Positions 12,637 through 33,872 of a DNA stretch of 44,465 nt are shown piece after piece; position 1 is the stretch's first letter, and each line of letters starts with the position of its first letter. The translations under genes were made by a program, and so were the position numbers. Origin of the DNA: Bacteroidales bacterium. Lineage in GTDB: Bacteria > Bacteroidota > Bacteroidia > Bacteroidales > UBA12077. The stretch covers positions 1-44,465 of the forward strand of contig JANQHR010000055.1 of the NCBI GenBank assembly GCA_028282585.1. The letters are read 5' to 3'. Under the pieces are notes generated by a model. The model was given only the letters and a program-made list of their open reading frames with translations, did not search any database and was not told the DNA's origin.

Positions 12637-13974
12637 TTAATGGAAATTCTTCAAAACCGTATTAATTTCTTCTAGTTTTTTATTAAGAATTTCCTGATTA
12701 TCTGCCTCGGCTAATAACCTTAAATAAGGTTCTGTATTTGAAGGTCGAACATTAAACCACCAATTTTTAAATTCTAAACGATATCCGTCAAAATCAAGAA
12801 TTTCCATTGGTTCTTCTTCTGCTACAAAATAATCCTTTAATGCTTCCATAGCTTCTTTCTTTTGTTCTATTTTATAGTTGATTTCACCTGAGTTAGCATA
12901 TTTGCCAATTTCTGAAATTGACTCTGATAAAGGCTTTCCTTCTTTTTTAAATTTCGAAACCAGATTTAGTACAATTAATGAAGCCAAAATTCCGGAATCA
13001 GAATAAAAGAAATCGCGGAAATAATAATGTCCTGCTAATTCACCTCCGTAAATACCTTTTATCTCTCTTAATTTTGGTGTGGCATAAGCTCTTCCCACTC
13101 TCCAGGTATGCATTTTACCACCTAACTGCTCAACATATTCTTTTACCGCTTTAGAAGTTCTTATGTCTTCTAATACAGCTCCTTTTTCTTTTTCAAGAAA
13201 GTAATTTGCCATAAATCCGATCATTAGATCAGGAGAAATAAACTGGCCCTTCTCATCAACAAACATTACACGGTCTGCATCACCATCGAAAATAATGCCT
13301 ATATCACACTTTTCTTCTAAAACTGTTTTTTTAAGGTCCGCTACATTACTTTCAATTAATGGATTTGGTTCATGATTTGGAAAACTTCCATCCATTTCTT
13401 CATACAGGTAGGTCGGTTTTTTACCCAATAATTTTTTGATTAATAATCCGGCCATTCCATTTGAGCAGTCAATAGCCATTTTAATGTTGGAGTAATCCTG
13501 AACGTAAGACTTAAGAAATTCTAAATACTCATCTTTAACTTTGTAATCAACAATTTTACCTTTCTTTTCTGCAATAAAAATCTCACGATTTTGGATCATA
13601 TCAAGCAATTTATTTAATCCGGTGTCGAATCCAACAGGAATAGCATTTGCTTTTGATATTTTCATTCCATTATATTCGCGTGAATTATGAGAAGCAGTAA
13701 TTTGAACCGATGCTGCAAATTTATGTTTCGCAGTTGTATAATATACCATTGGTGTTGTAGCTAAACCAATATTATATACATTGGCCCCACTATCAATAAT
13801 TCCCTGGGCCAGATGTTCAAAGATCTCATCTGATGAAACACGAGCATCTCTTCCAACTAAAACATTATCAGCTTGTAAAAGTTCTGGTAAAAAGTACCCA
13901 ATTTTATAAGCATCTTCCTTATTAAAATCTTCGTTGTAAATACCTCTAATGTCGTATGCTTTAAAAGCTTTCAT
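12637..13974 (-). CDS. Phosphomannomutase/phosphoglucomutase
   Basis: FKAYDIRG, GRDAR, ITASHN (phosphoserine), FDGDADR metal loop, GELAGHY, RPSNTEP. Confidence 0.93.
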   Translation of the reverse strand: MKAFKAYDIRGIYNEDFNKEDAYKIGYFLPELLQADNVLVGRDARVSSDEIFEHLAQGIIDSGANVYNIGLATTPMVYYTTAKHKFAASVQITASHNSREYNGMKISKANAIPVGFDTGLNKLLDMIQNREIFIAEKKGKIVDYKVKDEYLEFLKSYVQDYSNIKMAIDCSNGMAGLLIKKLLGKKPTYLYEEMDGSFPNHEPNPLIESNVADLKKTVLEEKCDIGIIFDGDADRVMFVDEKGQFISPDLMIGFMANYFLEKEKGAVLEDIRTSKAVKEYVEQLGGKMHTWRVGRAYATPKLREIKGIYGGELAGHYYFRDFFYSDSGILASLIVLNLVSKFKKEGKPLSESISEIGKYANSGEINYKIEQKKEAMEALKDYFVAEEEPMEILDFDGYRLEFKNWWFNVRPSNTEPYLRLLAEADNQEILNKKLEEINTVLKNFH

Positions 13975-14011: not shown

Positions 14012-14041
14012 AAAAGAAGTCAGATTTAAACTGACTTCTTT
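14012..14041 (-). terminator. Intrinsic terminator after the divergent PGK-family gene
   Basis: Stem aaagaagtcag (14013-14023) / ctgacttcttt (14031-14041) with a 7-nt loop. Confidence 0.75.
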
Positions 14042-14076: not shown

Positions 14077-15363
14077 TTATTTTGTTAAAGCTTTTACCGG
14101 CTCAATTCCCAAGGTAGTTCCTTCTTGAATTGCTTTTAAAACGGCACCACCACCGGTAAAAATGTAATATTTAGGACTATCCAGCGCCACAATATATAAT
14201 CCGGGTAATAATCTTTTAAGTTCTTGCATGGTATCTCCACCTCCATATAATTTTACCGCCTCAACATTTTCATCAATTAATTCATCGAGAGCAATTGTAC
14301 CTTCATTAAAGTGCGGAGTAAATCCCATAACAGCATTCACAAAAATGGTTCTTGCAGATGAAAATATATCATGAATTTTTTCCTCGTAAAATGATTCTTT
14401 AGCTACATCAAGCACATAATTTAATTTAGTTCCGGGCTTTAATTCATGAATATTATGAACTCTATATTTACCCTCGAATTTTCCATTTAAAGTATCTGAC
14501 TCAACAATAAAAGGAAGTTCGACTAATTTGCCCGGATATTGCTCACTAAATTTTACAAATTCTTTGGCGTGTGCTAAATCATCCTCAGATATACCTTTAA
14601 TTTCAATTCCATATTTTGCGTATAGATATGCGTTATAAATAACACCACCCAGAACCAAATAGTCTGCTTTTTTTATCAGAGCATAAAGAGAATCAATTTT
14701 TGTGTCAAATTTTGATCCGGCAACAACTGCAATGAATGGAGATTGCGGGCTATAAATTCGTTCAAGATTCTCAATTTCTTTTTGCATTAAAAATCCGGCG
14801 TACGATGGCAAATATTTATTAACGCCTACTGTTGAAGCATGTGGCTGCCATGATCCGAAAGCATCGTTAACAAAAATATCAGCTAAACCTGCTAACTGAT
14901 TTGCAAACCGGTCCTGATCACCACCTTTAGACTCTTCTCCTTGAAACCAACGAGTATTTGGTAAATAAATTCCATCAATTTTTCCTTCTTTTAATTCCCG
15001 GATGGAGTGATTTATTGATGTTTCAATTCCTATATATCCTTTATTTTCATGAGGATAAAAATCAGGAATTTTCATGTTGATGTGAAGCTTGTTTCGCAGG
15101 TATTCAACAATTGGTTCAACAGATGTGTCTTTACCAATTTTTATATCGCCTGTTTTTTTATCCTTAGGTCTTCCTACATGTGTCATTAAAATAATTTTTC
15201 CACCCTTGGCATTGATATGGTATAAAGTACCAATGGTTGCATCTATTCTATAAGGATCATGAATTACTCCTTTTTTAACCACATTGTGATCAACACGAAC
15301 CAAAACAACTTTACCATTTAAGTCTGCATCCTGGATGGATGGAATGTTATATTTATCGAGCAT
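14077..15363 (-). CDS. Divergent phosphoglycerate kinase family protein (428 aa, start corrected to ATG at 15363)
   Basis: RVDHNV, THVGRPK, PNTRWF, VNDAFG, AGSKFDTK, GGGDT and TGGGA identify the PGK fold. GTAHR is replaced by GSWQP and WNGPMGVFE by VNAVMGFTP. GGAGG lies just upstream of the ATG. Confidence 0.85.
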   Translation of the reverse strand: MLDKYNIPSIQDADLNGKVVLVRVDHNVVKKGVIHDPYRIDATIGTLYHINAKGGKIILMTHVGRPKDKKTGDIKIGKDTSVEPIVEYLRNKLHINMKIPDFYPHENKGYIGIETSINHSIRELKEGKIDGIYLPNTRWFQGEESKGGDQDRFANQLAGLADIFVNDAFGSWQPHASTVGVNKYLPSYAGFLMQKEIENLERIYSPQSPFIAVVAGSKFDTKIDSLYALIKKADYLVLGGVIYNAYLYAKYGIEIKGISEDDLAHAKEFVKFSEQYPGKLVELPFIVESDTLNGKFEGKYRVHNIHELKPGTKLNYVLDVAKESFYEEKIHDIFSSARTIFVNAVMGFTPHFNEGTIALDELIDENVEAVKLYGGGDTMQELKRLLPGLYIVALDSPKYYIFTGGGAVLKAIQEGTTLGIEPVKALTK

Positions 15364-15464
15364 AAAACCTCCGTTTTTTTTAATTAAATAAAGTTCTGAA
15401 AGGAAACACAAGTTACTTCAAAAATGTTTTTTTATCAATTAAAAATTACAGACAATAAATTTAT

Positions 15465-15504
15465 AAAAAGAAAAAACAGGTTCATAAAAAACCATGAACC
15501 TGTT
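15465..15504 (-). terminator. Intrinsic terminator after the tandem PGK gene
   Basis: Stem aacaggttcat (15475-15485) / atgaacctgtt (15494-15504). The A-rich run to the left gives the U tail on the minus strand. Confidence 0.8.
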
Positions 15505-15529
15505 GATTAAAACGTTTGTGATAAATATT

Positions 15530-17914
15530 TTAGATTTCTTCATTAATCGCTTTTAATGCAGGTAATTCTTTTCCTTCGATATACTCCAGCAGAGCTCCTC
15601 CGGCTGTTGAAATGTAACTTATTTTATGTGCTAAACTAAATTTGTTCACAGCTGAAATTGAATCACCTCCTCCAATTAAAGAAAATGCACCTTTATCTGT
15701 TGCCCTTGTAACTGACATTGCTATTTTTAAAGTTCCCATAGAGAAATTCGACATTTCAAATACTCCGATAGGGCCATTCCACAATATGGTTGCAGAATTT
15801 TCAATTACCTCACAAAATTGGTTTGCCGATTTTATACCAATATCCAGTCCCATCCAACCATCCTTGATGTTCTGAATTTCACTGTGTTCTATATTTGCTT
15901 CATTCTTGAATTCATCCGCAATAATACAGTCAGATGGTAAATATAAATTTATTCCTTTCTCTTTGGCTTTATCCAGAATTTCTTTAGCCACATCCAGGTA
16001 ATCATCTTCAACTAACGAATTTCCAATTTTCCCGCCCATAGCTTTCGCAAAAGTAAAAGCAATACCTCCGGCAATAATCAAATTATCAACTTTTTCTATT
16101 AGCGCTAAAATGATATGGATTTTAGTAGAAACTTTGGAGCCACCAAGAATGGCTGTAAAAGGTTTTTTAGCTCTTTTAACCACTTTATTAATATTATTTA
16201 TTTCACTTTCTACCAGGTAACCAAACATTTTATCTTCAGGGAAAAATTTAGCTAAGGTATATGTTGAGGCATGAGCTCTATGTGCTGTTCCAAAGGCATT
16301 AAAAACATATACATCGCCCAACTCCGACAATTGTTTTGCAAATTTTTCGTCGGCATTTGTTTCTTCTTTATGGAATCTTAAATTTTCAAGTAGCAAGCAT
16401 TCTCCTGGTTTTAAAACAGTTGCTGCAATCATTGCTTCCTCGCCTATACAATCTCCAATAAATTTAACTTTGCCATCTAAAGCTTTGTTTAGAAACGGAT
16501 GAATATGTTTTAACGAATATTTTTCATCTATTTTACCTTTTGGCCGTCCGAGGTGTGTTAAAAATATAATGGATCCTCCCTCAGCTAGTATTTTTCGGGC
16601 AGTAGGTAACGCAGTAACAATTCTTGTTGTATCTGTGATTTCAAGGTTTTCGTCTAATGGAACATTAAAATCAACTCGCATTAGAACTTTCTTTCCCTCA
16701 AAATCATATCTGTCGATAGTTAGTCCTTGTTTAACAGCTTTTATACTTGGTAATTCTTTTCCTTCTAAATATTCTAATAATGCACCACCTGCAGTTGAGA
16801 TATAACTTATTTTATGAGCAAGACTATATTTGTTTACAGCAGCAATGGAATCTCCCCCACCAATTAAAGAAAAAGCGCCTTTATCTGTAGCTCTGGCAAC
16901 TGACATAGCTACTTTTAATGTACCCATTGCAAAACTTGGCATTTCAAAAACACCTATAGGACCATTCCAAAGTATTTTCTTTGAATTTTCTATTACTTCA
17001 GCAAACCGATTTGCTGATTTTATACCAATATCCAATCCCATCCAATCTTCAGGGATTTCCATTATATCACAATGATCAATGTTTGCTTCATTTTTAAATT
17101 CGTCAGCAATAACGCAGTCCGTAGGTAAATATAGTTTTACTCTATTTTTTTCTGCTTGTTTAATAATATGTCTGGCAAAGTTCAAAAAATCATCTTCAAT
17201 TAAAGAGTTTCCAATATTACCTCCCATAGCCTTGGCAAAGGTAAATCCGATCCCACCGGCAATAATCAGATTATCAACTTTTTCTATAAGGGATTCAATA
17301 ATGTGAATTTTACTTGAAACTTTTGATCCGCCTAAAATGGCAGTAAAAGGATGTATAGGTTGGTGTAGTATCTTATCTATGTTGTTTATTTCACTTTCTA
17401 CTAAATAACCAAACATACATTTCCCAGGAAAATGTTTTGCTATTGTATAGGTTGAGGCATGAGCTCTATGAGCCGTTCCAAAAGCATTATTAACGTAAAC
17501 ATCGCCAAGGTTTGCTAGTTTCTTCGCAAAGCCTTCATTGGCATCTGTTTCTTCTTTGTAAAATCTTAAATTTTCTAATAAAAGAATTTCTCCCGGCCTT
17601 AAGTTTTTTGCTAATTCTTGTGTTTCCTTTCCAATACAATCTGATGCAAACTTGACTTCTCTGTTTAGAACTTTATTTAAGTGAGGAAGAATAGTTTTTA
17701 ACGACATTTTTTCATTGAACTTTCCTTTGGGTCTTCCTAAGTGAGTTAACAAAATAATTGATCCACCTTCAGCAATAATTTTTTGGATTGTAGGAATAGC
17801 AGTTATTATTCTCGTATCATCGGTAATTTCAAGATTTTCGTTAAGAGGAACATTGAAATCAACACGCATTAATACTTTTTTTCCGGCAAAATTGTAGTTG
17901 TCGATAGAATACAT
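15530..17914 (-). CDS. pgk: Tandem phosphoglycerate kinase (two full PGK domains in one 794-aa ORF, ATG at 17914)
   Basis: All PGK motifs occur twice: RVDFNVP, THLGRPKG, LLENLRF, AFGTAHRAHAS, GGSKVS, GLDIG, WNGPIGVFE, GGGDS, LEYxEGKELP. Confidence 0.95.
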   Translation of the reverse strand: MYSIDNYNFAGKKVLMRVDFNVPLNENLEITDDTRIITAIPTIQKIIAEGGSIILLTHLGRPKGKFNEKMSLKTILPHLNKVLNREVKFASDCIGKETQELAKNLRPGEILLLENLRFYKEETDANEGFAKKLANLGDVYVNNAFGTAHRAHASTYTIAKHFPGKCMFGYLVESEINNIDKILHQPIHPFTAILGGSKVSSKIHIIESLIEKVDNLIIAGGIGFTFAKAMGGNIGNSLIEDDFLNFARHIIKQAEKNRVKLYLPTDCVIADEFKNEANIDHCDIMEIPEDWMGLDIGIKSANRFAEVIENSKKILWNGPIGVFEMPSFAMGTLKVAMSVARATDKGAFSLIGGGDSIAAVNKYSLAHKISYISTAGGALLEYLEGKELPSIKAVKQGLTIDRYDFEGKKVLMRVDFNVPLDENLEITDTTRIVTALPTARKILAEGGSIIFLTHLGRPKGKIDEKYSLKHIHPFLNKALDGKVKFIGDCIGEEAMIAATVLKPGECLLLENLRFHKEETNADEKFAKQLSELGDVYVFNAFGTAHRAHASTYTLAKFFPEDKMFGYLVESEINNINKVVKRAKKPFTAILGGSKVSTKIHIILALIEKVDNLIIAGGIAFTFAKAMGGKIGNSLVEDDYLDVAKEILDKAKEKGINLYLPSDCIIADEFKNEANIEHSEIQNIKDGWMGLDIGIKSANQFCEVIENSATILWNGPIGVFEMSNFSMGTLKIAMSVTRATDKGAFSLIGGGDSISAVNKFSLAHKISYISTAGGALLEYIEGKELPALKAINEEI
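15539..17914 (-). repeat. Diverged intragenic tandem duplication, period 1188 bp (396 codons)
   Basis: Homologous positions 17847/16659 and 16749/15561 are both exactly 1188 bp apart. The protein halves align without gaps. Confidence 0.95.
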
Positions 17915-17941
17915 TTTCAAGCACTTTTTTTGATGATGTGT

Positions 17942-17949
17942 TAAAGATA
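17942..17949 (-). promoter_or_regulatory. Candidate -7 box (TATCTTTA) for the tandem pgk
   Basis: taaagata at 17942-17949, about 30 nt upstream of the ATG. One-base variant of TAnnTTTG. Confidence 0.5.
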
Positions 17950-18096
17950 GAAATATATTTTTATTTAGTTTTTAAATTTGAGTGAGCTACATATTAACGA
18001 TTATATCCGAGAAATGATTTAAATGTTGTTCTTATATTCTTTATGCTTATTTTTACAAATTATCCTTCGGAAAGAAAACAAATAACAAGTTATTTT

Positions 18097-19224
18097 ATGC
18101 AGTTTAAGGAAGTTATTGGACACCAAAATATTAAAGATAAACTAATAAAAACCATCAAAGAAAACAGAGTTAGTCATGCTCAACTTTTTTTGGGTTCGGA
18201 GGGCTCTGGAAATTTATCATTGGCCATTGCTTACGCTCAATATTTATCTTGTGAGAATAAGCAAGAAAATGATTCATGTGGGGTATGTTCTTCTTGTGTA
18301 AAATATCAGAAATTAGTACATCCTGATTTGCATTTTGTATTTCCGGTTTCTACTTCTAAGGCTGTTTCTAAGGACCCAATTAGTGATGATTATATCAATC
18401 AGTGGCGGGAAACAATAATTGAAAACCCTTATATAAACCAAAATAAATGGTATCAGGTTATTGATGTTGAGAATAAACAAGGGATTATAAGCAAGAACGA
18501 AAGCTATGAGATTTTAAAAAAATTAAATCTTAAAACGTTTGAATCTGAGTACAAAATAATGATTATTTGGTTACCTGAAAAAATGAATGCTTTTGCTGCA
18601 AATAAACTTTTAAAATTAATTGAGGAACCACCGGCAAAAACATTATTTCTATTAGTTTCTGAAAATTCCGAACAAATCATATCAACAATTCTTTCGAGAA
18701 CTCAATTAGTTAAAATACCTAAGATTGATAATGAAAGCATGCGAAATGCACTTTCCGACAGAAGCGGATTATCTCCGGGAAAAGCTAATGATATTGTTCA
18801 CCTGGCTAATGGTAACTATTATCAAGCTCTTAATTTAATTGATGCTTCGGAAGATGATAACTTTAACTTTGAGCAATTTTCAAAATTGATGAGACTTTCA
18901 TACCAACGAAAAGTTATTGAAATAATTGAATGGGTAGATGAGATAGCCAGGATCGGGCGTGAAAAGCAAAAAACCTTATTAGCTTATTCAATTAGATTGA
19001 TTCGCGAAAACTTTATGTTGAATATGCAAAAAAAAGAAATTGTTTATTTAACACAAATGGAAATGGAATTTTCCGAGAAATTTTCACAGTTTATAAGTTC
19101 GGAGAATGTAGGTCAAATATATGAGTCATTTAATCGCGCATATGCTGATATAGAAATGAATGCTTATAATAAAATTGTTTTTCTTGATTTAGGATTAAAA
19201 ATTATAAAATTGATAAGAAAGTAA
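18097..19224 (+). CDS. holB: DNA polymerase III delta' subunit (start corrected to MQFKEVIG)
   Basis: SHAQLFLG, zinc module C...CGVCSSC, HPDLH, ANKLLKLIEEPP, TILSRTQ. Confidence 0.92.
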   Translation: MQFKEVIGHQNIKDKLIKTIKENRVSHAQLFLGSEGSGNLSLAIAYAQYLSCENKQENDSCGVCSSCVKYQKLVHPDLHFVFPVSTSKAVSKDPISDDYINQWRETIIENPYINQNKWYQVIDVENKQGIISKNESYEILKKLNLKTFESEYKIMIIWLPEKMNAFAANKLLKLIEEPPAKTLFLLVSENSEQIISTILSRTQLVKIPKIDNESMRNALSDRSGLSPGKANDIVHLANGNYYQALNLIDASEDDNFNFEQFSKLMRLSYQRKVIEIIEWVDEIARIGREKQKTLLAYSIRLIRENFMLNMQKKEIVYLTQMEMEFSEKFSQFISSENVGQIYESFNRAYADIEMNAYNKIVFLDLGLKIIKLIRK

Positions 19225-26380: not shown

Positions 26381-27934
26381 ATGAGAAAAGTAAGCATATT
26401 ATGGACTGATGATGAAATTGATTTGCTAAGACCACACATCTTATTCCTTGAAGAAAAAGGATTTAAACTTTCTACAGCAAGTAATGGCGATGATGCCATC
26501 GAAATGGTTAAAAAGAATGATTATGACCTGGTTTTTCTTGATGAGAATATGCCTGGTTTAAGTGGATTACAAACATTGACATACATAAAAGAAATTAAAC
26601 CGGATATTCCTGTAATAATGATAACCAAAAGCGAAGAAGAGAATATCATGGATGAAGCGATTGGTTCAAAAATAGCAGATTATTTAATTAAACCTGTAAA
26701 TCCCAAACAAATATTATTAAGTATTAAAAAGAATTTTGATACCAAAAGATTAGTTTCTGAAAAGACATTATCAGATTATCAATCTCAATTTGGACAAATT
26801 GGATTAAAGATCTCTGATGCCAGTTCATTTAGTGAATGGGTAGAGTTATATAAAAAATTAGTTTACTGGGAATTGGAACTTGAGCAAAATGAGGAAACAG
26901 GAATGAATGAGGTTTTTCAGATGCAAAAATCAGATGCTAATAAAGATTTTGCAAAATTCATTAAGAAAAATTATCAGTCCTGGTTTGACGGTACAAATGA
27001 AAAGCCTTTACTATCACCAAATCTTTTTAAAGAGCGAATATTCCCAATGGTTGATAAAGGTGAAAAGGTTTTTGTTTTATTAATTGATAATTTTCGTTAT
27101 GATCAGTGGAAGTTAATCCAACCATTGATTAGTGAGTACTTTACTGTGGAGAATGAAGAACTATATTGCAGTATTTTACCAACAGCTACTCAATATTCCC
27201 GTAATGCTATATTTGCAGGCTTAATGCCTTTTGAGATAAATAAGTTACATCCTGAATATTGGCTGCATGACGAAGACGAGGGAGGGAAGAATATGAAGGA
27301 AGAAGAACTTTTCCAAACACAGTTAAATCGTTTTGGTAAGAAGTATAAATATTTTTATGAAAAAATCAGTCAGTTAAAAATCGGAGAAAAGTTGGTTGAG
27401 AATATCAAAGATCTTTTGAATAATCAATTAAATATATTAGTTTATAATTATATAGATATGCTCTCGCATGCAAGGACAGAAATTGAAATGATTCGGGAAC
27501 TTGCAAATGATGAACCAGCTTATCGGTCAGTAACCCTTTCGTGGTTTAAACATTCTCCTCTTTTTGCTTTAATTAAAGAATTGCAGCAACATCGTGTTAA
27601 AATTATTATAACAACCGATCACGGAACCATTCGCGTTAAGAATCCGGTAAAAGTTGTCGGTGATAAGAATACTTCTACAAATCTACGCTATAAGAATGGC
27701 CGAAACCTAAATTATAACCCTAAGGAAGTATTTGAGATTCGGGAGCCAGAGAAAGTGCATTTGCCAAAATCAAATATTAGTACTAGTTATATTTTCGCTA
27801 TAAACGATGATTTTTTGGCCTATCCAAATAATTTCAATTATTATGTTAGTTATTATAGAGATACTTTTCAACATGGTGGAGTTTCACTCGAAGAAATGAT
27901 CATTCCTTTTATAAAATTAAAACCTAATAAATAA
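26381..27934 (+). CDS. porX: T9SS response regulator PorX (receiver + PglZ domain)
   Basis: ILWTDDE, FLDENMPG, ITKSEEE, IDNFRYDQW, LPTATQYSRN, TTDHG, FQHGGVSLEEM. Followed by tsaE. Confidence 0.95.
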   Translation: MRKVSILWTDDEIDLLRPHILFLEEKGFKLSTASNGDDAIEMVKKNDYDLVFLDENMPGLSGLQTLTYIKEIKPDIPVIMITKSEEENIMDEAIGSKIADYLIKPVNPKQILLSIKKNFDTKRLVSEKTLSDYQSQFGQIGLKISDASSFSEWVELYKKLVYWELELEQNEETGMNEVFQMQKSDANKDFAKFIKKNYQSWFDGTNEKPLLSPNLFKERIFPMVDKGEKVFVLLIDNFRYDQWKLIQPLISEYFTVENEELYCSILPTATQYSRNAIFAGLMPFEINKLHPEYWLHDEDEGGKNMKEEELFQTQLNRFGKKYKYFYEKISQLKIGEKLVENIKDLLNNQLNILVYNYIDMLSHARTEIEMIRELANDEPAYRSVTLSWFKHSPLFALIKELQQHRVKIIITTDHGTIRVKNPVKVVGDKNTSTNLRYKNGRNLNYNPKEVFEIREPEKVHLPKSNISTSYIFAINDDFLAYPNNFNYYVSYYRDTFQHGGVSLEEMIIPFIKLKPNK

Positions 27935-29709: not shown

Positions 29710-30420
29710 ATGTTTAGAACCATTTTATTCTTTATTTATTTTTGGCTCTTTTTGATTTTATCCCTTTTTATTTATGGATTTTATAAGTTATTAGGATTTA
29801 TTTTACCAAAGGCTAATAATAAGATTTTACTTGTTCTTGTTCAATGGTGGGCAAGAAACATATTAAGAATTGGTGGAATAAAGTTAAATTTGTCAGGATC
29901 AGAAAATATTCCAAAAAATAGCCGTGTTTGTTTTGTCAGTAACCATCAAAGCAATTATGATATTGGAATTTTAATATCAGCAATTCCTATGATTATAGGC
30001 TTTATTGCTAAAGTTGAGCTAAAGAAATATTTACCTTTGCGGGTTTGGATGGAGGAAATAAATTGCCTTTTCATTAATCGTAAAAAACCGAAACTATCCA
30101 TAAAGAATGTAGAAGAAAGAATACAAGCCATTAAAGAGGGGAAGACTCTTTTGATTTTTCCGGAAGGTACTAGAAGTAAAGGTTATAATATGCAGAGTTT
30201 TAAAACCGGAAGTTTAAGATTATTGGTTGAAAATAATATTGAAATAGTACCTATCACAATAAAAAATTCTTTTTTAAGATATGAGAAAGAAAAACGAATT
30301 AAACCAGGGAAAATTGATATAATAATACATCCATCAATAAATCCACTAGAATATGATAATAAGGATTTAGTGTTGTATAAAATCTGTGAAACTATTAAAA
30401 GCGGATTACCTGATTTTTAG
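29710..30420 (+). CDS. 1-acyl-sn-glycerol-3-phosphate (lysophospholipid) acyltransferase, PlsC family
   Basis: N-terminal TM segment, NHQSNYD (HX4D), FIAKVEL, FPEGTRS. Confidence 0.9.
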   Translation: MFRTILFFIYFWLFLILSLFIYGFYKLLGFILPKANNKILLVLVQWWARNILRIGGIKLNLSGSENIPKNSRVCFVSNHQSNYDIGILISAIPMIIGFIAKVELKKYLPLRVWMEEINCLFINRKKPKLSIKNVEERIQAIKEGKTLLIFPEGTRSKGYNMQSFKTGSLRLLVENNIEIVPITIKNSFLRYEKEKRIKPGKIDIIIHPSINPLEYDNKDLVLYKICETIKSGLPDF

Positions 30421-33400
30421 AAAAAAGCTCTTAGTTGAATACTTCCTGTGTGAACAGATTTTAAATTTTCGGATGCTCGTCCGTTATATAAAATATTCAT
30501 TTCTAAATATCCTGCAAGTTTTCTTTGAAACGCAATACTCCATGTTGCATTATTTCCTGGTTTTAATCCCTGCATCATTTCATATGCAATTGAAGTATTC
30601 GTATCCGAATTATAATAAATATTTAGATAATTCGCTTGAACTAATAAGTTCCCTTTTTTAGCTATGGAATGATTAATTTCTGTTCCTATATCATGCGTTA
30701 TATTTTTCTCAGATGCCAGTTTGTTGGCTTTATCCGAGTAAGTATAGTTTAGTTCTATCCTTGTTTTAAATCCAGGTTGGTATTGAACTTTAATTTCATT
30801 ACTAAAGTTGTTTATTTTATAATTTTTAGTACTAAAAAATTCAGATTCATAGAACTTATTACCCATCTCAGAATAATTTTGAAACATAAAATCAGAAATA
30901 AATTTCCATCTGATCTTGATTCCATGAATCATTTTATTTCTTTGATCAAATCCATTGGATAAAAGAATCTTGTTCTGATTTTTTTGATAAATATAATCTA
31001 CCCCTAATTTTGAATTGGTTCGATTAAATGAAAAGGTATTTCTAAAACTCTGATTATAATTTATTAAGGTACTATCAGAAGGCAAAGCATAAAATGGATT
31101 TAAGCTATGCTCTAAAACCTCATCAATAGACTTTTGATTTATTTGGTAAGCGAAGCTATTTGAAAATCGTGAAATAGTTTTTTTTATGCCATTTTTTGAC
31201 CTCCAAATAGCTTCTGGTCTTAAATTCAATATCTGGCTAAATTCGTTCTTGTAAGTTTTTATAAACTCATTTCCAGGTGTATAAATTCTGATATAGTTAG
31301 CTTGATCCTGAAATTGAGCAATCTCAAATTCATCCAGTTCTGCGACACCATTTTCATTATAATCTTCCCAATAGTAAACTCCTTGACCTGTTGAAACCTT
31401 TAGATATGAATATTCTCTTTTAGGCTCAAGCCCTGATCCGGCTTCATAAAAGGTAGAAGATGTAATTGCACCTTTAAATACTCTAAATGTATAATCTATT
31501 CTTCCTGTCAATGTATTTTCTTCTTGCTGCCGGATGATATTAGTATCTAAAACTTCTAGCCTGCGATAGTTTACAATAGTTCTTAATATACTATTTGGAT
31601 TCTTTAATAAACTAAATCCGGCTTGAAAGTCTTCGGCTTTTGTAGAATTTCTGAGTTTATTTTGGGAAGGAAGAAAATCATTGCGAAGTTTATAACTTAA
31701 AGAATATTTATTAACAGTCGAATCAGAATTTTCGATATAGAATCGATAGGATGAAAAATTAAAACTATTATTTAATAAGCTATCGGTTTGCGTGTTTTTC
31801 CATTCATTGCGCTCCATTTCATTTTCAATTCCAAATTTAATTATCGAAACCGTTTTTGATAAGTCAGCTAAATATCTTAAGAACTGAGTTTTACTTTCAT
31901 CTGAATCGGTATTTAATAAGCTGGAATTGAATTTAAAATTAAAACCGAATCTTCGGATTGATGTATTAAGTTGATGTCGGTATCCCAAATATTCAGATTT
32001 ACTAGTCAATAAACTAAAATTGTAATTGCTATATAAGAATGCCTTTCGGTTGTAGTTTAAAGCTATTGATGCAGAATTTTCGTCTCCAATTAATGGAATA
32101 TTCAGATTCCAATCTCTTTCAAACTCGACTGTTCTGAATCTTTCAATTTCTGTAAAGTGCTTATTGATAAACTGATATTGGGCGGATGCTTTTAATTGGT
32201 TAATTGCTGTATCTGCACTTAATAGACTTTTTTGAATTCTAAAATTAAGGGCATAACCGATATTGTCATTTGCATCTTTTGATGAAAAAGTATTAATATC
32301 GTAATTACTTAATGCTAGTTCAAAACTTGTTTTTGTGCTTTTATTAATTCTAATATTACCTCCAAAATTTACTAATTGTTGTTTTTTTGGAGCAATCAAT
32401 AAACGTACAGGTTCATAATCTCCTTGCGGAATTCCTGAAGCCGGAGCAATCCATTCAAAAACTTTACCATTGGCAGAATTCTGAATTTGAACATAATTAC
32501 CTTTATTGCTTCCAACATAACTAAATCCTACTTGATATACCGCTTTATCCGGATTAATTGAATATTGATAAATTTCAAAACTAGTACCATTATTAATAGT
32601 ATCAATTTTTGCATATAAAACGTAATCATTTCTAAATTCAACGCTATCCGCATTAGCAACAAACGCATTGTTTATACTATCGCCCGATTCAGAAAGCAAC
32701 TGTTTTTGTTCTTGGGTTAAATCCTGGTTAACGGGTTGATTTTTACTATCCTGTTCAGAATAAACATTTAACCAGAAATTACCACTTTTACTTTCAAATT
32801 CATTTGAAGTGTAAATAATAAAACGGGCATAACTTCTTTCCGAATATTCGAATTCAACAGATATACGTGAATCTTTCGTTATTGGTCTATTGGCTGTAAA
32901 AGTAATTTCTCCTGTGTTATAATCAATTACATAATCGTATTCTTTTCCTCTTTTTTGTAATTTTCCATTAATATAGATTTTCTCGGATCCTGCAAGTACG
33001 ATAATGAATTGTTCGTTTTCGCAACCTGTGAGTTTATATGGCCCCTGATTTCCTTCTTGTCCTTGAAACGTTTTTCGGCAATATTTACCTTTACTAACAG
33101 CTCCACCTATTGTTGTTTCAAACTGATTAAGCTCATTTTTTTTACTTTTAACTTTTGTATTTAGCAACCCGCCTTGTGCTTTTTTATTTATGTTCATGAA
33201 CAGACCCCTGGGTTTATATATTTCAAAGTCACCTGCAATAAGTTTGGTTTTATCATTATACAACTGTATAAACACTTTATCAAAGTCTTGAATTTGCTGC
33301 GAGTTTCCATCAGGTTGAATGGGGATATTTTCATCGGAAATGGCGGCCAAAAGATACATTTCATTGCTTATTTTACCAGATATTTGAAGGTTTAAATTGG

Positions 33401-33872
33401 AATTAATTACCGCATCCTGATTATTCCCAACTGTAATACCTCTTAAAATACTACCTTGTTTATCTAGCTGATTATCTGTAAAAAAAGTACTGCGAGAAAT
33501 TCCTTGAAAGTTATTAGCTTTAGTTATCATAGGACCTACTATAACTGTTTGTTCTTTTTTCCTATAGTAAAGCGGTTCTGAAAAGTTAATTGGGAACACC
33601 CGGTATTTAATTTGAACTTTAGAATATTTATCAATATAAGGTCCTGATGTTATTAAAATTGCATTCGGATAATCTATATAATAGGTAGAATCAGGGATAG
33701 CAGAATTTTTATCATCAAGTATTATTTCAGAATTAGGTACAATACTTAATGAATCAAGTTTAATAGTATCACTAATTATGAATAAGGTTTTTGTGCGAAA
33801 ATTGGACAATTCCTGAGAATTCGCAATAAAAAAGGTAAGAGTATATAATATTAAAAGAGTTATCTTCCGCAA
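30417..33872 (-). CDS. Uncharacterised large outer-membrane beta-barrel protein (1151 aa)
   Basis: Signal peptide, many alternating amphipathic beta-strands, C-terminal beta-signal GSIQLRAFF. TTG start. Confidence 0.75.
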   Translation of the reverse strand: MRKITLLILYTLTFFIANSQELSNFRTKTLFIISDTIKLDSLSIVPNSEIILDDKNSAIPDSTYYIDYPNAILITSGPYIDKYSKVQIKYRVFPINFSEPLYYRKKEQTVIVGPMITKANNFQGISRSTFFTDNQLDKQGSILRGITVGNNQDAVINSNLNLQISGKISNEMYLLAAISDENIPIQPDGNSQQIQDFDKVFIQLYNDKTKLIAGDFEIYKPRGLFMNINKKAQGGLLNTKVKSKKNELNQFETTIGGAVSKGKYCRKTFQGQEGNQGPYKLTGCENEQFIIVLAGSEKIYINGKLQKRGKEYDYVIDYNTGEITFTANRPITKDSRISVEFEYSERSYARFIIYTSNEFESKSGNFWLNVYSEQDSKNQPVNQDLTQEQKQLLSESGDSINNAFVANADSVEFRNDYVLYAKIDTINNGTSFEIYQYSINPDKAVYQVGFSYVGSNKGNYVQIQNSANGKVFEWIAPASGIPQGDYEPVRLLIAPKKQQLVNFGGNIRINKSTKTSFELALSNYDINTFSSKDANDNIGYALNFRIQKSLLSADTAINQLKASAQYQFINKHFTEIERFRTVEFERDWNLNIPLIGDENSASIALNYNRKAFLYSNYNFSLLTSKSEYLGYRHQLNTSIRRFGFNFKFNSSLLNTDSDESKTQFLRYLADLSKTVSIIKFGIENEMERNEWKNTQTDSLLNNSFNFSSYRFYIENSDSTVNKYSLSYKLRNDFLPSQNKLRNSTKAEDFQAGFSLLKNPNSILRTIVNYRRLEVLDTNIIRQQEENTLTGRIDYTFRVFKGAITSSTFYEAGSGLEPKREYSYLKVSTGQGVYYWEDYNENGVAELDEFEIAQFQDQANYIRIYTPGNEFIKTYKNEFSQILNLRPEAIWRSKNGIKKTISRFSNSFAYQINQKSIDEVLEHSLNPFYALPSDSTLINYNQSFRNTFSFNRTNSKLGVDYIYQKNQNKILLSNGFDQRNKMIHGIKIRWKFISDFMFQNYSEMGNKFYESEFFSTKNYKINNFSNEIKVQYQPGFKTRIELNYTYSDKANKLASEKNITHDIGTEINHSIAKKGNLLVQANYLNIYYNSDTNTSIAYEMMQGLKPGNNATWSIAFQRKLAGYLEMNILYNGRASENLKSVHTGSIQLRAFF

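Follow-up and report, generated by a model that had tools for sequence, protein, structure and literature searches.

A tandem phosphoglycerate kinase with two complete units in one open frame of marine Bacteroidota

Phosphoglycerate kinase (PGK) is a textbook monomeric hinge-bending enzyme, and its usual architecture, typical of the family without defining it, is a single unit of about 400 residues. A different arrangement is found in a 44,465-nt stretch of a Bacteroidales genome (GenBank assembly GCA_028282585.1, contig JANQHR010000055.1, positions 1 to 44,465; hereafter the window), where one minus-strand open reading frame (ORF) encodes two PGK units joined in a chain of 794 residues. This fused form is real and is conserved in a group of marine Bacteroidota. 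It is likely, in our assessment, that the gene arose by duplication and fusion of pgk in place, giving a tandem PGK; judging from retained residues and substitution patterns, both units of the window protein are most likely active enzymes. An initial reading of the window, made from its letters without database searches (the sequence-only reading), had drawn attention to this gene, and its claims are taken up where the corresponding results are given.

Architecture, catalytic residues and recurrence of the fused frame

The ORF occupies positions 15530..17920 of the minus strand and would yield 796 residues from a TTG start or 794 residues from the ATG at 17914. Its parts are as follows.

15530..17914, minus strand: fused pgk-pgk gene, 794 residues plus a stop codon at 15530-15532, with an alternative TTG start at 17920, two codons upstream
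16727..17914, minus strand: PGK unit 1 (residues 1-396), matching PF00162 positions 1-379 with 510.5 bits
15539..16726, minus strand: PGK unit 2 (residues 397-792), matching PF00162 positions 1-379 with 491 bits; its first residue is Gly, not Met, and the residues EI precede the stop

A Pfam search of the ORF product returned PF00162 at E 7e-300 in two full-length stretches, and a genome profile search (cut-off 27 bits) placed both units across positions 1-379 of the 379-position profile within one open frame free of stops, while a repeat search of the window recovered direct repeats at an exact spacing of 1188 nt. The sequence-only reading had described one ORF with two full PGK units aligned without gaps at a 1188-bp period, and these results agree with it. 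Its manual count of about 103 differences in 396 positions (about 74% identity) turned out to be exact, as the gapless alignment of both units contains 293 identical residues out of 396 (74.0%, 103 differences); at the nucleotide level, 863 of 1188 positions agree (72.6%). At the junction the sequence is ...ELPSIKAVKQ/GLTIDRYDFEGKK, with neither a linker nor a Met, again as claimed, and the first Met of unit 2 is residue 412, inside the first beta-strand. Matches to PF06962 and MnmM were rejected as chance, with no stretch passing and an MnmM score far under the cut-off. The earlier account of the architecture therefore stands, although it had left out the minus-strand orientation, the third PGK gene of the locus, the lineages with decayed halves and the frequency of the fused form in metagenome data.

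Both units retain the residues expected of a working PGK. When 62 fused proteins were aligned (alignment A1), the invariant columns comprised D19, N21, R35, H58, R61, R117, R150, K198, K202, E324 and G352-D355 in unit 1, and D415, N417, R431, H454, R457, R513, R546, K598, N713, E720 and G749-D751 in unit 2; the catalytic Lys of the GGSK motif never varies in unit 1, and in unit 2 its conservation is 90% or more. At the 15 catalytic positions checked, the window protein reads DNRHRRRKKNEGGGD in each half. The lysines of GGSKxxxK are kept as K198/K202 and K594/K598, and the nucleotide/Mg site as N317, E324 and GGGD352-355 in one unit and N713, E720 and GGGD748-751 in the other. In a study of the human enzyme, K215, K219 and R38 are described as touching the transferring phosphoryl group (PMC5594045). 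The statement of the sequence-only reading that the D/N/R/H/R/R/R set, the GGSK lysine and GGGD are kept in both units agrees with this residue check. We take the D/N/R/H/R/R/R set to be the 3-phosphoglycerate-binding basic patch of the N-domain, and human K215, K219 and R38, assigned by motif, presumably correspond to K198/K594, K202/K598 and R35/R431, respectively.

Selection was assessed from the ratio of nonsynonymous to synonymous substitution rates (dN/dS). Between the halves this ratio is 0.10-0.17 (NG86, eight lineages), and between orthologous halves of the window protein and its homologue in genome G008 it is 0.038 for unit 1 and 0.029 for unit 2; all these values are rough, as dS is saturated throughout (1.3 to above 3; 1.3-2.5 between halves). 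The claim that the duplication is under selection is in line with these ratios, and the dN/dS comparison of the halves that had been proposed as a check indicates strong constraint on both, with unit 2 as low as unit 1. On the evidence of these ratios, purifying selection on both units is strong. Across the 46 closest relatives, the halves are told apart by only 10 fixed differences (Y2L, S3T, Q44R, L55F, N142F, I182V, P288K, K313T, L383I and Q396E), and none of them is catalytic, so that the sequence bears no sign of directional or substrate specialisation.

The frame recurs far beyond the window. A Logan contig (25,066 nt, depth 13.9), built from what is probably the source run of the window, matches positions 15400-18050 with 0 differences; it derives from the same reads through another assembly program and hence counts as weak independent support. 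All 120 listed homologous proteins align along most or all of the query at identities down to 64%, and 109 of them are 789-800 residues long. They are drawn from many assemblies, including the one-contig, 4.6-Mb genome G008, and their source names are Marinilabiliales, Bacteroidales or Bacteroidota metagenome-assembled genomes. The frame is open across the junction in all 109 aligned proteins, and the period is 396 residues in eight of the nine lineages read as DNA. One homologue, P0041, belongs to a protein-atlas cluster of 67 members with a representative of 820 residues from Bacteroidota. Read support at the junction had been named as a check by the sequence-only reading; the Logan contig spans the junction, and the recurrence in many assemblies supports it strongly. 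The fused form is not an assembly artefact.

Taxonomic range and decayed forms

The family code of the window covers 56 genomes in four genera, which were tallied by their PF00162 matches. Two matches within one open frame of approximately 790-840 residues are present in 41 genomes, a third-type paralog (PGK3) is the sole match in 11, fragments at contig ends represent the family in two (G011 and G071), and G046, which is 57% complete, has none. G016, a 6.8-Mb member of the same genus with 97% completeness, likewise gave zero PF00162 matches. For the wider range, a 100-residue peptide centred on the junction (window 16577-16876, minus strand) was used as a probe. Of 401 genomes drawn evenly from the order, 19 gave an end-to-end match in a frame of about 800 residues, and these fall into seven family codes (f1, f26, f35, f43, f83, f94 and f97); elsewhere in the phylum, 0 of 400 sampled genomes matched at E <= 1e-24. 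This is the outcome of the taxonomic mapping of proteins with two PF00162 domains that the sequence-only reading had suggested. In a first sample of the order, single PGK frames were present in sixteen other families, twelve of them complete (397-434 residues) and four cut at contig ends. A locus search of genome contigs with the fused alignment relied on patterns common to all PGKs and mostly recovered single PGKs; the fused form was confined to L020 and to L021, a fragment at a contig end.

When 1.84 billion cluster representatives were scanned without a profile, only two full-length double PGKs from bacteria came back, namely P0121, which belongs to the clade of the window, and P0124. The latter (797 residues, from a metagenome) is likewise a head-to-tail PGK-PGK protein without a linker, with the junction ...LPGVTALTV/LPFRTLRDL, a period of 397 residues and halves that are 72.5% identical. 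It shares only 42-43% identity with the halves of the window protein, and its nearest relatives are single PGKs named Holophaga or Holophagaceae, 82% identical to its half 2 and 71% to its half 1 (loci L110 and L112-L115). For these reasons P0124 represents an independent event, and the PGK-PGK architecture has arisen at least twice. The same scan also returned gene models from molluscs with two to four PGK stretches, P0126 (Bulinus truncatus, 1031 residues) and P0130 (Aplysia californica, 1918 residues), which could be either true multi-PGK proteins or the result of merging tandem genes.

Within the fused group, several altered forms were encountered. Gln replaces the catalytic Lys of unit 2 (the K594 position) in 8 of the 109 fused proteins, five of which also have SGGD in place of GGGD. 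The Gln-bearing sub-clade consists of P0060, P0063-P0065, P0067 and P0070-P0072, in which unit 2 is still conserved (C-C identity 0.832), and it may be a natural half-dead tandem enzyme, as far as the residues indicate. Two of the 109 proteins carry GGDK together with an Asn-to-Asp change in unit 1. In family f91, a form of 638-650 residues occurs in three genomes (G145, G273 and G379), in which a degenerate C-domain (GGDK, DGDD) is all that stands for unit 1 and is followed by a short spacer and a complete PGK; by its sequence, it looks like a tandem PGK with a decayed first unit. Its located example is the following.

L100:1462-3378, minus strand, genome G145: f91 variant of 638 residues

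Moreover, the 11 family genomes in which PGK3 stands alone, without the fused gene, are 78-99% complete. In G052, the fused gene is absent from the syntenic site, where holB is followed by about 620 nt and then by PGK3 and the mutase gene, and in G020, three unrelated ORFs take the place of the fused gene.

Locus, origin and competing explanations

The surroundings of the fused gene bear on its origin. The neighbouring features are listed below.

18043..19224, plus strand: holB (DNA polymerase III delta'), divergent neighbour of the fused gene
15475..15504, minus strand: terminator-like hairpin with a 13-bp stem and a T run, 26 nt past the fused-gene stop
14077..15363, minus strand: PGK3, a third, divergent PGK paralog of 428 residues from an ATG at 15363, next downstream of the fused gene (ORF list, Pfam)
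14013..14041, minus strand: terminator-like hairpin after PGK3 (consensus scan)
12637..13974, minus strand: phosphoglucomutase/phosphomannomutase-family gene, which follows PGK3 in all four family loci read

As a divergently oriented neighbour of the fused gene, holB is present in the window, in two congeneric relatives and in families f35, f94 and f97. Among 78 other Bacteroidota loci, 11 have a holB homologue in the flank of a single pgk, one of these loci being named Draconibacterium. Since holB lies beside single pgk genes elsewhere, the fusion sits at the ancestral pgk position, which points to tandem duplication in situ. The hairpin after the stop suggests that the fused gene is its own transcription unit; both hairpins come from a consensus scan alone, in which 4 sites were found against 2.9 expected.

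The PGK-family matches of the genome are restricted to unit 1, unit 2 and PGK3 (genome profile search). PGK3 shares 31% identity with unit 1 and keeps most catalytic residues, with Gln at the R150 equivalent and without the Glu of the nucleotide site. Its relatives, 77-96% identical, include records named Desulfobacterales or Desulfobulbaceae (about 81%) and an Altiarchaeales bin (79%), a pattern that suggests strong conservation of this subfamily and its movement between phyla. PGK3 was found in 62 of the 401 sampled genomes of the order, among them every one of the 19 with the fusion and the three from f91. As genomes that are related do not count as independent, this co-occurrence may mark one clade only. 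Eleven fairly complete genomes have no PGK-family gene besides PGK3, which is therefore probably functional as a PGK.

Elsewhere the window has ordinary chromosomal content, with genes for RNase H, rlmN, RNase HII, gldH, trmB, tsaE and kdtA-type functions. A minus-strand ORF at 30417-33872 (1151 residues) matches no Pfam family at E <= 1e-5, and the plus-strand gene at 26381-27934 combines a response-regulator receiver domain with a PglZ domain, in what we take to be a resemblance to the PorX-type regulator of Bacteroidota.

In the course of events that we propose, a housekeeping pgk beside holB would have undergone tandem duplication, and an in-frame fusion that removed the stop codon, the spacer and the start codon of the second copy would have joined the copies. 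The result would be one 794-residue chain of two complete PGKs, each with its own 3-phosphoglycerate site in the N-domain, its own nucleotide site in the C-domain and its own hinge, so that one polypeptide would carry two catalytic centres in a fixed 1:1 stoichiometry. The fusion, which is always accompanied by PGK3, would have arisen inside one group of families of the order and would have met different fates by lineage: intact as in the window, with the unit 2 Lys lost, with the unit 1 N-domain lost, or with the whole gene lost and PGK3 left alone. Several observations weigh against this proposal, including the grouping of the halves in trees and the recurrence of fusion in Holophagaceae, the slightly faster evolution of unit 2, the altered and missing forms described above and the low confidence in the predicted arrangement of the units, and they are considered here together with the explanations that they favour.

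The first of these explanations concerns history only, and holds that duplication and fusion to the tandem form took place repeatedly and independently in these families, not once with later homogenisation; we consider it unlikely, though to be taken seriously. For a quick IQ-TREE tree, 42 halves were combined with the complete f91 unit and with 12 single PGKs from as many other families. In this tree, each of five lineages has its own N and C halves as sister groups, with values of 95-100 in the Shimodaira-Hasegawa-like approximate likelihood-ratio test (SH-aLRT), as repeated origin would predict. Forcing all N halves together costs 134 log-likelihood units and gives p 0.036 in the approximately unbiased test, a value that is optimistic because the N-half group was named after the first tree had been seen. 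Quartet site patterns carry an orthologous signal within the family (25:8:1), and between most families they favour the own partner (for example 5:29:2). No column separates all N from all C halves at 70% or more among the 109 proteins, and the Holophagaceae protein shows that a fusion without a linker can recur.

Against repeated origin, all 42 halves form one clade (SH-aLRT 93; 99 with the f91 unit), apart from the single PGKs of the 12 other families (99), and the period and junction length are identical in eight of the nine lineages. Repeated origin would require at least six identical events. Some deep pairs also keep more orthologous sites (L103-P0117, 19:12:5; L020-P0117, 18:6:9), and the N/C label changes needed are fewer in the N-domain tree (6-7) than in the C-domain tree (10-11), which suggests a mosaic history. 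No recent gene-conversion tracts between halves were detected, the longest identical run being at most 34 nt and third-position identity 0.43-0.53, and a runs test for clustering of orthologous versus paralogous sites gave p 0.05 in one pair and was not significant in 11. The short identical runs, together with the saturated dS between halves, agree with the claim of the sequence-only reading that the duplication is old. From these patterns we infer one fusion followed by old episodes of homogenisation of the halves; a single origin is not proven.

A second explanation accepts the fused chain and proposes that one unit, most likely unit 2, is catalytically weak or silent and serves as a regulatory, stabilising or binding module, in analogy to mammalian hexokinase I, in which one fused half became regulatory. 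Unit 1 is indeed slightly more conserved, with N-N identity exceeding C-C identity in 4309 of 5886 pairs, and the Pfam score of unit 2 is the lower of the two. Relatives without the catalytic Lys of unit 2 nevertheless keep that unit conserved, and f91 retains a degenerate part of unit 1; moreover, since some relatives have Gln at the position of this Lys, the second catalytic site is not needed everywhere. For the window protein, however, such a role appears rather improbable, as K594 is kept in this protein and in 101 of the 109 relatives, all 15 catalytic positions checked are retained, unit 2 has as low a dN/dS as unit 1, and none of the 10 fixed half-specific differences is catalytic.

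Public annotation lends some colour to a third explanation, in which the long ORF is not the functional product and the units are made separately as ordinary monomers, through internal initiation near the junction or through proteolysis. The fused form is common in metagenome data, often annotated as a 400-residue PGK. Many NCBI-sourced records of 383-404 residues named phosphoglycerate kinase lie on long contigs and start inside the fused frame, calling unit 2 only; 13 of the 23 short records examined begin at residues 391-412. P0414, for instance, corresponds exactly to residues 402-804 of an open 804-residue frame (L105:5548-7959, plus strand), with its first residue read as Met. Yet the frame is open across the junction in all 109 proteins with the 396-residue period in eight of nine lineages, unit 2 has no Met before residue 412, inside its first beta-strand, and a separate unit 1 would need a stop codon, which is not present. 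Start-codon choice guided by the family would be a simpler account of the short calls, and we regard separate production of the units as very improbable. Finally, although the window comes from a metagenome-type assembly and a search of sequencing runs returned only one run that contains it and no RNA run, a collapsed or chimeric join of two pgk copies in assembly or binning is refuted for practical purposes by the same open frame in many independent assemblies, the closed 4.6-Mb genome among them, and by the contig of a second assembler that spans the gene with 0 differences, and assembly collapse is not credible because the halves differ at 27% of bases, which leaves no room for confusion during assembly.

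Predicted structure, significance and comparison with known systems

In situ duplication and fusion into a tandem with two active units is hence the reading under which the structure is discussed. AlphaFold2 run on A1 gave a mean predicted local distance difference test score (pLDDT) of 89.6 and a predicted template modelling score (pTM) of 0.57, with mean pLDDT of 79.9-89.6 over five models and a dip at the junction, where residues 391-400 average 68. Of the structure prediction that the sequence-only reading had put forward, the folding of each unit is obtained with confidence, whereas at this pTM the unit-unit arrangement, and with it any fixed interface, is not. The C-terminal helix of PGK packs on its own N-domain, and because no linker has been added, the two N-domains would have to adjoin; we infer that they lie side by side. 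It is a possibility, by analogy with the connection found in 1fw8 (see below), that unit 2 offers its N-domain as the packing surface for the C-terminal helix of unit 1. The sequence-only reading had put forward N-domains set back to back, with coupled hinges, cooperativity or directional specialisation as possibilities. The further proposal that the units are coupled, in that the linker-less join would create a fixed pseudo-symmetric pair of N-domains and hinge closure or binding in one unit would affect the other, is speculative and, in our judgement, doubtful. If it held, cooperativity would be present in a textbook non-cooperative enzyme, and the need for matched halves would explain the phylogeny reminiscent of concerted evolution; if the units are independent, the protein amounts to no more than a neat example of fixed gene dosage. 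In either case, a natural tandem that occurs in several families and was invented at least twice offers a ready-made system for studying the coupling of hinge-bending units, and one clade displays the evolution of duplicated halves in intact, half-dead (Lys to Gln), truncated and lost forms.

A search of the available literature and of PDB sequences found no described PGK-PGK tandem, in agreement with the statement of the sequence-only reading that no characterised example was known to it. None of the 46 matching PDB chains is longer than 511 residues or contains two PGK units. The accessible parts of a PGK review cover the Thermotoga fusion of PGK with triosephosphate isomerase (TIM) and the large kinetoplastid PGKs, and no PGK-PGK tandem (PMC7729029). 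The fused PGK-PGK apparently has so far been neither described nor characterised. The window protein scores 1003.9 bits on the PGK/TIM model NF010569, above its cut-off of 883, by matching model positions 5-392 of 645 twice, and this score could lead to automatic mis-naming as PGK/TIM. With only unit 2 annotated in many records and this cut-off exceeded, the architecture is largely hidden in public data or at risk of being mis-named.

Among known systems, the canonical monomeric PGKs (best PDB sequence matches 7zy7_A, 1php_A and 1vpe_A) resemble each unit taken singly, as each unit of the window protein matches them over the full length (E 3e-116 to 4e-113) with all catalytic motifs. The Thermotoga PGK-TIM protein (NF010569, PRK13962) shares with the window protein the presence of PGK in a covalent fusion, and is described as a tetramer (PMC7729029). 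The window protein differs in having no TIM domain, Pfam recognising PGK only. A third comparison is with 1fw8, listed simply as phosphoglycerate kinase and presumably a circularly permuted yeast PGK, whose chain A aligns contiguously over the natural junction (query 69-461 to chain 3-414). This alignment indicates that a direct link from the C-terminus to the N-terminus of PGK is compatible with the fold; 1fw8, however, is an engineered single unit with its own ends joined, whereas in the window protein the join runs between two units, from the C-terminus of the first to the N-terminus of the second.

In Kinetoplastea, as far as the review's available text goes, large multi-domain PGK-like paralogs occur, some of them predicted to be inactive (PMC7729029). 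They parallel the decayed halves among relatives of the window protein, but on the same partial account their extra domains are not a second PGK and they are eukaryotic and of unrelated origin. The 100-kDa mammalian hexokinases are likewise duplicated and fused hinge-bending kinases, with both halves active or one regulatory. The likeness is one of function; they belong to another fold family and another domain of life, and no evidence of allostery is seen in the window protein. The Holophagaceae protein P0124 repeats the linker-less, head-to-tail arrangement of the window protein.

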